A stretch of 64,000 nucleotides of DNA from Escherichia coli O127:H6 str. E2348/69 (lineage in GTDB: Bacteria; Pseudomonadota; Gammaproteobacteria; Enterobacterales; Enterobacteriaceae). The stretch is from NCBI RefSeq assembly GCF_000026545.1, contig NC_011601.1. One strand, given 5' to 3'. A program made the translations under genes and the position numbers. The notes beneath the pieces are model-generated. The model was not told the DNA's origin. It ran no database searches and saw only the letters and a list, made by a program, of their open reading frames with translations. Positions 1 to 4,088 of this stretch are shown piece after piece. How positions within the stretch are numbered: the stretch's first letter is position 1; each line of letters begins with the position of its first letter.

Positions 1-215
1 AGCAGGGCGCTTTTATCCTGTCAGTTCGTTTTACGCACTTCTTCCGGGCTATACACCCTTCTCGGCAGTTTTTTAACGCCGCTATACGCCTCACAGAGCG
101 CTGTAACCTGTAAAGTACAATATCGCTGTGTGTAGGCGTTATACATCGTCGCAAATATGATGAAGGACAATGCTGCCGGTTTATGGAAAAGTTCTTTTGG
201 GAAAACAAAAAACGG

Positions 216-227
216 CCCCAGAAGGGG
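216..227. repeat. 12-bp target-site duplication (left copy, ccccagaagggg) flanking the IS4-like element
   Basis: Identical 12-mer ccccagaagggg directly abuts both ends of the element (216-227 and 1372-1383). Confidence 0.8.
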
Positions 228-1371
228 TAATGCCAGTCAGTTAAGCAACTGACTGGCTCTTTTTCGGGGCTGTGGGGTATTTCCAGGGCCTCTCCTTTAC
301 CACTCTCGGGAAGGCCCTTTCCCTTCTTGTCGGTAATTTCACTAGTTGTCCCATACTTGCAAGATCGCGCATCAGCTCCGGTATACGTCCCGGTGAAGCG
401 CATGGCGTCCGTCATCGATGTCAGCAGATGGCAGACTTTTCCTTTGCGCGTCACGGTCAGCAGGCGGGCTGTCACCTCATTTCCCAGTCCCGGCCACTTT
501 TTTCGTGCCTGCGGGCTGGTTTTCAGCTTCACCAGATGATCGCCTTTACCCAGTTTTCTGATCTCTTCATATTGCGCTCCCTTTCTGAGAGGGAACATCC
601 AGTGGCGGTGTTCTCCCGCCAGGCTCCAGGTATTTAACAGTCCTGGTGAGTAATAACCTTTATTCATTAACGTCAGGGTGTTATCGCCGGTTTGTTCTAT
701 AAGTTGCTCAGCAAGCTCATTTCCGCTGTTCTTCATCGTGCCGAAGGCTGCAGTCGTCAGCAGATGGCTGGTCAGTTCCATCTGGCAGACCATTTTGACC
801 TGCGGGTAGAGCGCCGGGTTCCCGGCATGTGTCTGGCGGGGGAAGGCTGCATCGTTCTCTGGTGTATCCGGTGTGCGCCAGAACACACCATCGATGGCCA
901 GCAGGGTCAGGCCGCACCAGTGCGGATGCGGCGTGGCGTTATGCCAGAGCTGCGCTGTTTTCGTGAACACGCGGCGGACAGCCTCAATTCCCAGACGCTA
1001 GCGGGTCTGAATAACGGCACTGGGGCAACGAAGGGGCGATTGCCCGGCAGCATGATGTCCAGGCGATTCACAATCTGGTGAAGAGGTTCTTTACGCTCAA
1101 GCGCCATGCCAACAATACACCAGACCATCATTTCGAGGGGAAGACGGCGCTTGCGTAGCGTTACAGTACCTGATTCGGCAAGGCAACGAGAGATGAGTTC
1201 GGGGTCGAGGTAATCCCCCAGAGAAGTCAGTGGGTTACGCAGAGAATCGTAACGGGATACCAAACCAAGGGCCTGTCCAATGAGCATAAAAAAATCCGGA
1301 AACGAGTGAGCGTTTCCGGATTCTTACACAGCCACTGGAGCGGTCAACTGATCCTTAACTGACTGGCATTA
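228..1371 (-). mobile_element. IS4-family insertion sequence, internally deleted copy (about 1.14 kb)
   Basis: Terminal inverted repeats taatgccagtcagttaag (228-245) and cttaactgactggcatta (1354-1371); encodes an InsG-like transposase; flanked by a 12-bp direct repeat. Confidence 0.85.
241..1287 (-). pseudogene. IS4 transposase (InsG-like) pseudogene: in-frame TAG near 1004-1006 and about 0.28-kb internal deletion removing the YREK catalytic region
   Basis: Minus-strand translation matches recalled InsG N-terminus (MLIGQALGLVSRYDSLRNPLTSLGDYLDPELISRCLAESGTVTLRKRRLPLEMMVWCIVGMALERKEPLHQIVNRLDIMLPGNRPFVAP...) and C-terminus (...PELMRDLASMGQLVKLPTRRERAFPRVVKERPWKYPTAPKKSQSVA*); reading frame is broken between. 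Confidence 0.8.
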
Positions 1372-1383
1372 CCCCAGAAGGGG
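1372..1383. repeat. 12-bp target-site duplication (right copy)
   Basis: ccccagaagggg repeated; with the IS removed, the flanks rejoin as aacggcccc-agaa-ggggccgtt, a perfect hairpin plus T-run on the adhE strand. Confidence 0.8.
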
Positions 1384-1412
1384 CCGTTTATGTTGCCAGA
1401 CAGCGCTACTGA

Positions 1413-4088
1413 TTAAGCGGATTTTTTCGCTTTTTTCTCAGCTTTAGCCGGAGCAGCTTCTTTCTTCGCTGCAGTTTCGCCTTCTACATAATCACGACCG
1501 TAGTAGGTATCCAGCAGAATCTGTTTCAGCTCGGAGATCAGCGGGTAACGCGGGTTAGCGCCGGTGCACTGGTCATCGAATGCATCTTCAGACAGTTTAT
1601 CCACGTTCGCCAGGAAGTCTGCTTCCTGAACGCCAGCTTCACGGATAGATTTCGGAATACCCAGTTCAGCTTTCAGCGTTTCCAGCCATGCCAGCAGTTT
1701 CTCGATCTTAGCTGCAGTACGGTCGCCCGGTGCGCTCAGACCCAGGTGGTCAGCAATTTCAGCATAACGACGGCGAGCCTGCGGACGGTCATACTGGCTG
1801 AATGCAGTCTGCTTGGTCGGGTTGTCATTCGCGTTGTAGCGAATAACGTTACAAATCAGCAGGGCGTTTGCCAGACCGTGCGGAATATGGAACTGGGAAC
1901 CCAGTTTGTGCGCCATTGAGTGACATACACCCAGGAAGGCGTTCGCAAACGCGATACCCGCGATAGTCGCTGCACTGTGAACACGTTCACGCGCTACCGG
2001 ATTTTTAGACCCTTCGTGGTAGGACACTGGCAGATATTCTTTCAGTAGTTTCAGTGCCTGCAGAGCCTGACCATCAGAGAACTCAGATGCCAGTACAGAA
2101 ACATAAGCTTCCATGGCGTGAGTTACTGCGTCCAGACCACCGAAAGCACACAGGGACTTCGGCATGTCCATAACAAGGTTGGCGTCGACAATCGCCATAT
2201 CCGGGGTCAGTGCATAGTCTGCCAGCGGATATTTCTGACCAGTAGTGTCGTCAGTTACAACCGCAAACGGAGTGACTTCAGAACCTGTACCGGAAGTGGT
2301 GGTGACAGCGATCATTTTCGCTTTCACACCCATTTTCGGGAACTTGTAGATACGTTTACGGATATCCATAAAGCGCAGCGCCAGTTCTTCGAAGTGAGTT
2401 TCCGGATGTTCGTACATAACCCACATGATCTTCGCAGCGTCCATCGGGGAACCACCACCCAGCGCGATAATCACGTCTGGTTTGAAGGAGTTTGCCAGTT
2501 CTGCACCTTTACGAACGATGCTCAGGGTCGGGTCAGCTTCTACTTCGAAGAAGACTTCAGTTTCAACGCCTGCTGCTTTCAATACGGAAGTGATCTGATC
2601 AGCATAACCATTGTTGAACAGGAAGCGGTCAGTCACGATGAGCGCACGTTTGTGGCCATCAGTAATCACTTCATCCAGCGCGATTGGCAGGGAGCCACGG
2701 CGGAAGTAGATAGATTTCGGAAGTTTGTGCCACAACATGTTTTCAGCTCGCTTAGCAACGGTTTTCTTGTTGATCAGGTGTTTCGGACCAACGTTTTCAG
2801 AGATGGAGTTACCACCCCAGGAACCACAACCCAGAGTCAGGGAAGGTGCGAGTTTGAAGTTATACAGGTCACCGATACCACCCTGAGAAGCCGGGGTGTT
2901 AATCAGGATACGAGCCGTTTTCATTTTCTGACCGAAGTAAGAAACGCGAGCCGGTTGGTTATCCTGGTCAGTGTACAGGCAAGAGGTATGACCGATACCG
3001 CCCATAGCAACCAGTTTCTCTGCTTTTTCTACCGCGTCTTCGAAATCTTTAGCACGGTACATTGCCAGAGTCGGGGACAGTTTTTCATGTGCGAACGGTT
3101 CGCTTTCATCAACAACGGTCACTTCGCCGATCAGAATCTTGGTGTTTTCTGGTACAGAGAAGCCTGCCAGTTCAGCAATTTTATAGGCTGGCTGACCAAC
3201 GATAGCCGCGTTCAGCGCACCGTTTTTCAGGATAACGTCCTGAACAGCTTTCAGCTCTTTACCCTGCAACAGATAGCCGCCGTGGGTTGCGAAACGTTCA
3301 CGTACTGCGTCATAAACAGAGTCAACAACAACAACAGACTGTTCAGAAGCACAGATTACACCGTTGTCGAAGGTTTTGGACATCAGTACAGATGCAACTG
3401 CACGTTTGATATCAGCAGTTTCATCGATAACAACCGGAGTGTTGCCCGCGCCTACGCCGATAGCTGGTTTACCGGAGCTGTATGCGGCTTTAACCATGCC
3501 CGGACCACCAGTCGCGAGGATCAGGTTGATGTCTGGGTGGTGCATCAGTGCGTTAGACAGTTCAACAGAAGGTTGATCGATCCAGCCGATCAGATCTTTC
3601 GGAGCACCGGCAGCGATAGCAGCCTGTAGAACGATATCAGCCGCTTTGTTGGTTGCATCTTTTGCACGCGGGTGCGGGGAGAAGATAATGGCGTTACGGG
3701 TCTTCAGGCTGATCAGCGATTTGAAGATAGCAGTTGAAGTCGGGTTAGTGGTCGGAACGATACCGCAAATAATACCGATGGGTTCAGCGATAGTGATGGT
3801 ACCAAAAGTGTCGTCTTCAGACAGAACACCACAGGTTTTTTCATCTTTATAGGCGTTGTAGATATATTCAGAAGCAAAGTGGTTTTTGATCACTTTATCT
3901 TCGACGATACCCATGCCGGATTCGGCAACGGCCATTTTCGCGAGTGGGATTCGAGCATCTGCAGCAGCCAGAGCGGCGGCGCGGAAGATTTTGTCTACTT
4001 GCTCTTGAGTGAAACTGGCATATTCACGCTGGGCTTTTTTTACACGCTCTACGAGTGCGTTAAGTTCAGCGACATTAGTAACAGCCAT
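1413..4088 (-). CDS. adhE: bifunctional aldehyde/alcohol dehydrogenase AdhE (891 aa)
   Basis: Full-length ORF with N-terminal aldehyde dehydrogenase and C-terminal Fe-alcohol dehydrogenase regions; sequence recognisable as E. coli AdhE. Confidence 0.97.

Follow-up and report, generated by a model that had tools for sequence, protein, structure and literature searches.

A defective IS4 copy in the adhE terminator hairpin of Escherichia coli E2348/69 carrying a hairpin predicted to substitute for that terminator

Introduction

Terminator or REP hairpins are the homing targets of mobile elements such as class C group II introns, IS1397/ISKpn1, and IS621. The transposase genes of IS10 and IS50 are protected from impinging transcription by fold-back inhibition. 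For IS4, an insertion in the pheST attenuator was reportedly described by Mayaux et al. in 1984, together with a pseudo-palindromic AAA-N20-TTT target consensus. Members of the IS4 subgroup make target duplications of 10 to 13 bp and have -AATR- ends with a relaxed first nucleotide (De Palmenaer et al. 2008, PMC2266710); both target arms were called "spectacular" in conservation in that 2008 family survey, in which the word "terminator" is absent (PMC2266710). A literature search for papers that connect IS4 with terminators, or insZ with adhE, returned nothing usable; it brought up a table that lists ISZ' in K-12 and, separately, an unrelated IS4 insertion in ompF. Here, we report on a defective IS4 copy that splits the adhE terminator hairpin of E. 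coli E2348/69, on the recurrence of insertions at that hairpin among complete E. coli genomes, and on a conserved hairpin inside IS4 at which adhE transcripts probably end.

Results

Over its first 1500 bases, the window (the whole 64-kb stretch of DNA that was analyzed) was 100% identical to the E. coli E2348/69 chromosome, where the RefSeq gene order is hns, tdk, IS4 pseudogene, and adhE, with tdk ending just before window position 1. RefSeq labels the element "IS4 family transposase" and marks it as a pseudogene ("frameshifted; internal stop"). The insertion consists of the following features.

1413-4088, minus strand: adhE coding sequence, 891 aa, with the stop codon at 1413-1415
228-1371, minus strand: defective IS4 copy, 1144 bp, with a transposase remnant co-directional with adhE (BLAST identity, alignment, and RefSeq)
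216-227, no strand: left 12-bp target-site duplication CCCCAGAAGGGG, corresponding to the inner stem and loop of the adhE terminator and single-copy in empty-site strains
1372-1383, no strand: right copy of the 12-bp duplication CCCCAGAAGGGG
228-245, plus strand: transposase-distal terminal inverted repeat, TAATGCCAGTCAGTTAAG
1354-1371, minus strand: transposase-proximal terminal inverted repeat

A first-pass annotation, made from the letters of the window, had described a deleted IS4 copy at 216 to 1383 with a 12-bp duplication, about 40 bp from the adhE stop. These coordinates proved exact, with CCCCAGAAGGGG at both 216-227 and 1372-1383, and the distance from the adhE stop codon was measured as 41 nt to the IS end and 29 nt to the duplication. 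The identification was confirmed by an Nterm_IS4 domain and by 97.7% identity to K-12 insG: against the 1426-bp copy of K-12 and B strains, the element aligned collinearly in two pieces over 227-1371, and the alignment to K-12 IS4 was broken by a gap of 281 bp and another of 1 bp. The repeats at 228-245 (TAATGCCAGTCAGTTAAG) and 1354-1371 are perfect 18-bp reverse complements of each other, and IS4-type ends, which start (T/C)AATGCC, occurred in the 64-kb window just at these two places (0.11 expected by chance). The duplication length falls within the IS4-subgroup range of 10 to 13 bp (Table 1 of PMC2266710), and the site, aaaaaacgg[TSD]ccgttta, fits the weights of the 113 sites surveyed below at positions +1 (C), +12 (G), and +16 to +18 (T). 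The element is thus IS4 itself, a copy of an already known, RefSeq-annotated IS, and it behaves as expected.

Removal of the IS and of one repeat copy joined the flanks as aaaaaacggcccc-agaa-ggggccgttt, and this uninterrupted sequence was found exactly in the natural strain 2017.20.01CC. Among 5426 complete E. coli genomes, the empty site was contiguous across a 201-bp junction probe in ~2161; in principle, some of these could be precise excisions. On the adhE strand, the empty site was called as a terminator (10 pairs, 7 of them G-C, with the tail TTTTGTTTAC), and the native hairpin, taken from the empty allele or the reconstruction, folded as a 10-bp GC-rich stem followed by UUUUUUUGUUU, 26 nt past the stop codon. 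The earlier claims that the target was the adhE terminator hairpin, and that the flanks rejoin as a perfect hairpin followed by a T-run, are therefore supported by both the terminator call and the fold, and the same sequence exists in natural strains. The first-pass annotation had also proposed a comparison with insertion-free strains and had made its reading hinge on the flanking repeat being a duplication. The outcome favored it: the ~2161 genomes with an empty site have a single copy of the repeat and those that bear the IS have two, so it is a true target duplication. The interrupted hairpin survives in the window as two separated halves.

207-215, minus strand: A-run at 207-212 (a U-run on the adhE strand) and outer stem half aacgg at 211-215, now parted from their partner by the IS
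1384-1389, minus strand: ccgttt, the other outer stem half of the adhE terminator, which remains joined to the adhE 3' untranslated region (UTR)

As it stands, the window holds no intact terminator at this place: the stem next to adhE is cut to 4 to 5 bp (GCCCC-UUCU-GGGGU by folding) and has no U-run.

The transposase is dead, as the first-pass annotation had claimed, with Y313, R316, E320, and K327 all lost. Three lesions mark the gene.

390-401, no strand: deletion junction, consisting of one surviving CCGG(T/G)GAAGCGC repeat
998-1000, minus strand: CAG-to-TAG nonsense mutation in the ancestral transposase frame
1022-1025, minus strand: G-run with 4 G instead of 5, shifting the frame after approximately codon 95

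By alignment to intact IS4, the deletion takes approximately codons 306 to 400 of the annotated 448-codon open reading frame (ORF) and, since 281 bp is not a multiple of three, itself shifts the frame. The deleted segment holds YSHRWEIELGYREIK, which is Y313-x2-R316-x3-E320-x6-K327 of InsG (E320 being catalytic), and is bounded in intact IS4 by the short direct repeats CCGGTGAAGCGC and CCGGGGAAGCGC (CCGG(T/G)GAAGCGC), which points to slippage or illegitimate recombination. The earlier estimate of a deletion of about 285 bp over the YREK region was correct as to the loss of YREK and slightly off in size, and it did not include the frameshift. The TAG, previously described as in-frame, lies in the ancestral InsG frame and not in the frame read from the ATG at 1287, which continues to 907 (ORF 907-1287, 126 aa); the 1-bp loss in the G-run at 1022-1025 had been missed altogether. 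In Pfam, the 126-aa ORF matched Nterm_IS4 alone (E = 1.8e-23), whereas intact InsG matched Nterm_IS4 and DDE_Tnp_1, so that the window copy falls short of a full transposase (N-terminal domain, DDE domain, and Y-2-R-3-E-6-K). With YREK deleted and the frame broken twice more, the element is a defective derivative and not a different element. The same 281-bp deletion was found at the same site in strain ECE170, in a copy that was 97.4% identical, and the deletion is therefore older than the split between the E2348/69 and ECE170 lineages. Both the 1-bp loss and the TAG were absent from ECE170 (the one other copy compared at the site), and the 1-bp loss was absent from K-12 IS4 as well.

Four alleles of the tdk-adhE spacer covered 5418 of the 5426 complete E. 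coli genomes, with genome counts that depend on the BLAST coverage thresholds. The deleted IS4 co-directional with adhE was found in ~1134 genomes, including ST131 isolates; ISZ' (insZ, the b4573 pseudogene element of K-12 MG1655) in ~1933; the empty site in ~2161, including O157:H7; and a full-length IS4, in the opposite orientation at the same 12 bp, in 190. The transposase of this last allele is identical to K-12 InsG, which marks it as a recent arrival. ISZ' is 989 bp long, has the ends CAATGCC..GGCATTG, and is flanked by a 10-bp duplication, CCCAGAAGGG, nested symmetrically inside the 12 bp of IS4. Its parent is an IS of ~1430 bp, from which segments of ~426 bp and 17 bp have been deleted, and a full-length, plasmid-borne relative is 92% identical and encodes a transposase just 39% identical to InsG.

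Whether the window element could be a diverged ISZ' insertion was considered and rejected on the basis of its different ends, its different duplication size, and the 39% transposase identity; a megablast of the window allele against the ISZ' allele aligned in the flanks only.

The adhE hairpin has thus been struck at least three independent times, by two IS4-subgroup elements centered on one dyad, and the three insertions together occupy about 60% of E. coli genomes. A single ancient insertion, from which divergence, gene conversion, or inversion produced the alleles and precise excision the empty sites, would account for the presence of every element on the same dyad and for the missing C-terminal catalytic part in both the deleted IS4 and ISZ'. 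We consider such a history very unlikely, given that the transposases of the full-length relatives are only 39% identical, that the terminal bases (T/A versus C/G) and the duplications (12 versus 10 bp) differ, that the 190-genome allele, whose InsG is identical to that of K-12, seems to have arrived recently, and that the hairpin is perfect and scar-free in the ~2161 empty-site genomes. Independent insertions remain the reading adopted here.

Target preference was surveyed by seeking the IS4 end GATCCTTAACTGATCGGCATTA in one genome per species, which gave 120 stretches from 35 genomes (genera including Aeromonas, Pectobacterium, Kosakonia, Budvicia, and Buttiauxella) and 113 distinct outside flanks. 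The weighted positions of these flanks were +1 (C in 70%), +12 (G in 58%), and +16 to +21 (T in 62 to 85%). At least five T in 8 positions were present in 87% of the flanks, compared with 12% at positions picked at random from those loci, and a stem of at least 4 bp closing within the first 9 to 15 nt (the duplicated segment) in 53%, compared with 3% at random positions. After column shuffling, 6.4% ± 2.2% of flanks had such a stem, and the palindromy therefore goes beyond position-specific base preferences. Complete copies (10 with clean duplications) had duplications of 11 to 14 bp in sites made of an A-run, a palindrome, and a T-run. The survey is in keeping with the features published for the IS4 subgroup (PMC2266710). 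The AAA-N20-TTT consensus fits it as well. Within E. coli, IS4 sites were found 38 nt behind bamD (aaaaaaacgg[CAGCTCAAGGGCTG]ccgtttt), behind glcA (aacccc[CAGCCTAGCTG]ggggtttt), and within the fiu coding sequence (aaaaaacgca[CCCACGCCGGGG]acgttttt), while the resident K-12 site, aaataggc[ATCTTGGTTCTG]gtgtttg, is not palindromic. The adhE site and the resident K-12 site can both be read as AAA-N20-TTT. Since some sites (the K-12 resident and fiu) are not terminators, the preference is presumably one for a DNA motif or shape and not for terminator function; the link between IS4 and intrinsic terminators is suggested by the sequences of the E. coli sites and of the 113 flanks.

These data also bear on how far the placement calls for explanation. 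The non-terminator sites would be expected if IS4 had landed in the adhE hairpin by chance and the coincidence with a terminator had no mechanistic meaning, but the T-run in 87% of flanks (controls, 12%) and the palindromic duplicated segment in 53% (controls, 3 to 6%) make this extremely improbable. The identical 12-bp target was moreover used in both orientations, the same dyad was used by ISZ', and the survey flanks were all distinct rather than copies of one duplicated locus. The first-pass annotation had described the IS4 copy as inserted precisely in the hairpin. IS4 and its relatives use A-run/GC-palindrome/T-run sites almost exclusively, and the adhE hairpin is a recurrent, population-wide hot spot with three independent hits, so that the precision of this insertion is unremarkable.

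Transcripts of adhE that enter the element would meet a second hairpin. The features relevant to the ends of transcripts around the insertion are as follows.

1288-1325, minus strand: IS4-borne hairpin AAGAAUCCGGAAACG-CUCACU-CGUUUCCGGAUUUUU, a predicted substitute adhE terminator, with the core stem 1322-1311 / 1304-1293
1320-1347, minus strand: promoter-like transposase site TTGACC-16 nt-AAGAAT with TG, whose hexamers are conserved in relatives (putative function)
2-31, plus strand: tdk's own terminator, hairpin 2-21 and T-rich tail (terminator-like call)

On the adhE strand, the IS4-borne hairpin lies about 47 to 88 nt inside the IS, and its U7 run (1294-1288) is directly upstream of the transposase ATG (1287-1285). 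It folded at -20.6 kcal/mol (z = -6.3), and 5 of its 15 pairs showed compensatory changes among 25 distinct IS4 relatives (in one pair, G-C in 12, U-A in 7, and A-U in 4). A simple pattern scan for terminators over 1-1600 listed no minus-strand terminator, this hairpin included; the likely reason for its absence is a stem prolonged into the U-run by A-U pairs. Since the promoter-like -10 sits inside the 5' arm of the hairpin, transcripts from the element's own promoter would lack the hairpin and transcripts from outside would form it. A search of window positions 1-1600 against Rfam (E ≤ 1) gave no match, and so no described RNA family is involved.

ISZ' has a non-homologous, positionally equivalent hairpin before its ATG, ACGGCUUCC-ACAACA-GGGAGCCGU-UUUCUU-AUG. 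By Term-seq (Adams et al. 2021, PMC7815308, supplementary file 1), a strong RNA 3' end maps to MG1655 1295324(-), with scores of 53,800, 51,499, and 100,225 in three data sets and the class "orphan" (PMC7815308). This position, within ...GGGAGCCGUUUUCU, is 122 nt past the adhE stop (1295446) and precedes the insZ ATG (1295322) by 2 nt, and the K-12 Term-seq tables (PMC7815308) hold no second 3' end near 12953xx. The mapped end could be a processing product.

The first-pass annotation implied a loss of adhE termination. In its full form, this reading would have the insertion abolish termination, with read-through toward tdk (antisense), altered adhE mRNA stability or expression, and a functionally important allele; the shortened stem of the original hairpin, with no U-run beside adhE, and the absence of minus-strand calls from the pattern scan of 1-1600 are both in line with it. 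Set against these are the strong, covarying hairpin and U7 that the IS carries on the adhE strand, the coincidence of the equivalent ISZ' hairpin with a strong K-12 3' end that is the only one near 12953xx in the Term-seq tables, and an intact adhE in the ~1134 genomes with this allele and the ~1933 with the analogous ISZ' allele. We therefore regard loss of termination as unlikely and the implication as probably wrong. Given a hairpin and U7 on the adhE strand in IS4 and an equivalent with a mapped 3' end in ISZ', adhE transcription probably still terminates, ~75 nt later, at the predicted IS4 hairpin. The 3' end would then fall at ~1288-1294, giving a predicted 3' UTR of ~123 nt compared with ~50 nt.

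At the transposase-distal end, the terminal repeat 228-245 and the segment 247-257 form another inward-facing hairpin on the plus strand, which spans 232-257 and leads into TCTTTTTC (232-265 in all). To transcripts from the tdk side it would look like a terminator, and it is conserved with compensatory variants in relatives. In the inverted allele (190 genomes), it is this distal-end hairpin that would be presented to adhE. The terminator sequence of tdk itself carries a Term-seq 3' end at MG1655 1294198(+) (PMC7815308, supplementary file 1); with a terminator of its own, tdk is independent of the adhE hairpin that the IS has split.

Discussion

The account that we consider very likely is a joint one, in which a terminator-targeted IS4 insertion was followed by decay and an IS-borne hairpin probably ends adhE transcripts. 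IS4 would have transposed into the adhE intrinsic terminator in an ancestor common to E2348/69, the ST131 isolates, and ECE170, duplicating 12 bp at the top of the hairpin. Its transposase appears to pick symmetric sites composed of an A-run, a GC-rich palindrome, and a T-run, mostly intrinsic terminators that look bidirectional, and the same hairpin was struck in separate events by an intact, oppositely oriented IS4 and by its relative ISZ' (the K-12 allele). Slippage between the 12-bp repeats in the common ancestor of the compared copies may then have deleted 281 bp and with it the catalytic E of YREK, and the 1-bp frameshift and TAG would have arisen later in the E2348/69 copy and not in that of ECE170. 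The insertion destroyed the original adhE terminator, and adhE transcripts entering the IS would encounter the inward-facing hairpin and U7 (1325-1288), where they most likely end. This conserved hairpin probably keeps transcription that starts outside the element from reaching the transposase gene. We infer both termination at 1288-1294 in E2348/69 and the near-neutrality of the insertion.

For the window itself, the element is a dead, annotated IS4 relic of little consequence, with adhE intact and probably still terminated. The tdk-adhE spacer can serve as a four-state E. coli marker that sorts strains into large groups: E2348/69 and ST131 isolates, for example, have the deleted IS4, K-12 has ISZ', and O157:H7 strains have the empty site. 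K-12, the reference strain for adhE, also lacks the native adhE terminator and, according to published 3'-end mapping, uses an IS-borne one.

It is possible, though doubtful, that IS4 and its close relatives are dedicated terminator-homing elements across Gammaproteobacteria, with replacement terminators at both ends. Were this true, insertion in either orientation would replace the terminator that it destroys and would be nearly neutral, and such near-neutrality would explain three independent insertions in the adhE terminator in ~60% of E. coli genomes. A transposon of the IS4 type may in this way pair a preference for safe sites (terminators) with a built-in substitute terminator, which is relevant to the annotation of 3' UTRs and of "orphan" RNA 3' ends beside IS remnants. 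The conservation of the target arms has already been published, and the mildly new elements are terminator homing and the built-in replacement terminator; neither the link to terminators nor the idea of a replacement terminator turned up in explicit form in the literature search.

Among known systems, the closest is K-12 IS4 (insG, 1426 bp, the type element of the IS4 family), which shares with the window copy the 18-bp ends, the 12-bp duplication, the promoter-like site, and the hairpin and U-run upstream of the ATG. The inverted repeats of K-12 IS4 match at 16 of 18 positions and those of the window copy at all 18; compared with K-12 IS4, the window copy lacks 281 bp and carries a 1-bp frameshift and a TAG. 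ISZ' of K-12 (insZ, b4573) shares the tdk-adhE position, the hairpin dyad, an internal deletion, and the direction of adhE, and likewise has an inward-facing hairpin and U-run just before the ATG, but it is a different element from an independent insertion and not an allele of the window copy. As in IS10 and IS50, the IS4 structure would form only in transcripts that come from outside the element; unlike theirs, its predicted form resembles a full intrinsic terminator (stem and U7). Class C group II introns, IS1397/ISKpn1, and IS621 are like IS4 in lying in or beside extragenic hairpins, a habit that spares the host some damage, but they rely on other enzymes and on other recognition mechanisms. 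IS4, a DDE cut-and-paste element, makes a staggered cut of about one helical turn centered on the hairpin dyad.

The reading frame left of the transposase InsG in the IS4 copy of E2348/69 retains the IS4 N-terminal domain:

Window 907-1287, minus strand: leftover transposase open reading frame, 126 aa (Pfam Nterm_IS4, E = 1.8e-23)

In ECE170 (L004), which also carries a deleted IS4 at the adhE site, the transposase frame is open as far as the 281-bp deletion because both the 1-bp frameshift and the TAG are absent, so that this copy could encode a longer transposase product without the catalytic E. Truncated transposases of this kind can serve as inhibitors in other IS families.

The terminal inverted repeats were compared between the following pairs:

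Window 228-245 versus 1354-1371: IS4 inverted repeats at the adhE site
L005 302-319 versus 1710-1727: IS4 inverted repeats

The adhE-site copies (window and ECE170) had inverted repeats identical at 18/18 positions, with ..GCCAGTCAG.. at both ends; those of the K-12 IS4 and most relatives matched at 16/18, with ..GCCGATCAG.. at the transposase-proximal end. Folding predictions for the 3' untranslated region of adhE (window 1363-1400, minus strand) pair its native sequence GUCUGGCA with UGCCAGUC in the IS4 terminal repeat, surrounding the residual CCCC/GGGG stem; this complementarity may be due to chance.

At window 102/103, E2348/69 is missing approximately 19 bp (tatacaccgacattgactt) that ECE170 carries in the stretch separating its IS from the tdk terminator, and a diverged version of this segment was found in both the empty-site strain 2017.20.01CC (L002) and the strain carrying ISZ' (L003). 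The gap is a minor, strain-specific deletion in the spacer.

IS4 copies were also found in other genomes. In E. coli SW070917 (L007), a copy splits the siderophore-receptor gene fiu, where the target is a terminator-like motif within the coding sequence (aaaaaacgca-CCCACGCCGGGG-acgttttt). This genome had 23 places matching a 1500-bp query (IS4 plus flanks), from which IS4 appears to be in active expansion there. Pectobacterium aroidearum L6 carries two IS4-like copies, at ~0.95 Mb (L121) and ~1.06 Mb (L122), with swapped flanks, the left flank of one copy matching the right flank of the other; such an exchange is the signature expected of a ~110-kb inversion via recombination between both copies. 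A 265-bp contig of Methylobacterium mesophilicum NBRC 15688 (L065) contained an IS4 end whose flank (atcttggttctgGTGTTTGTAACAAAC) is identical to the site where the resident IS4 of E. coli K-12 lies, and this contig is most likely E. coli DNA contaminating the assembly.

A relative of ISZ', the K-12 element between tdk and adhE, was located on a 141-kb E. coli plasmid:

L006 401-1830, plasmid NZ_CP062837.1: ISZ' relative, 1430 bp, apparently intact, 92% identity to ISZ'

With a 445-aa transposase and an 11-bp duplication (CCCGAACTGAA), this intact-looking element provides K-12 ISZ' with a living relative; fragments of it occurred at other places in O157:H7 strains. The MG1655 RNA 3' end at 1295324(-) (about 2025 in L011, the MG1655 region), 122 nt downstream of adhE, was classed as "orphan" by Adams et al. 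2021 (PMC7815308) and is accounted for by the ISZ' hairpin. Other "orphan" 3' ends beside IS remnants may likewise be gene terminators that were displaced.
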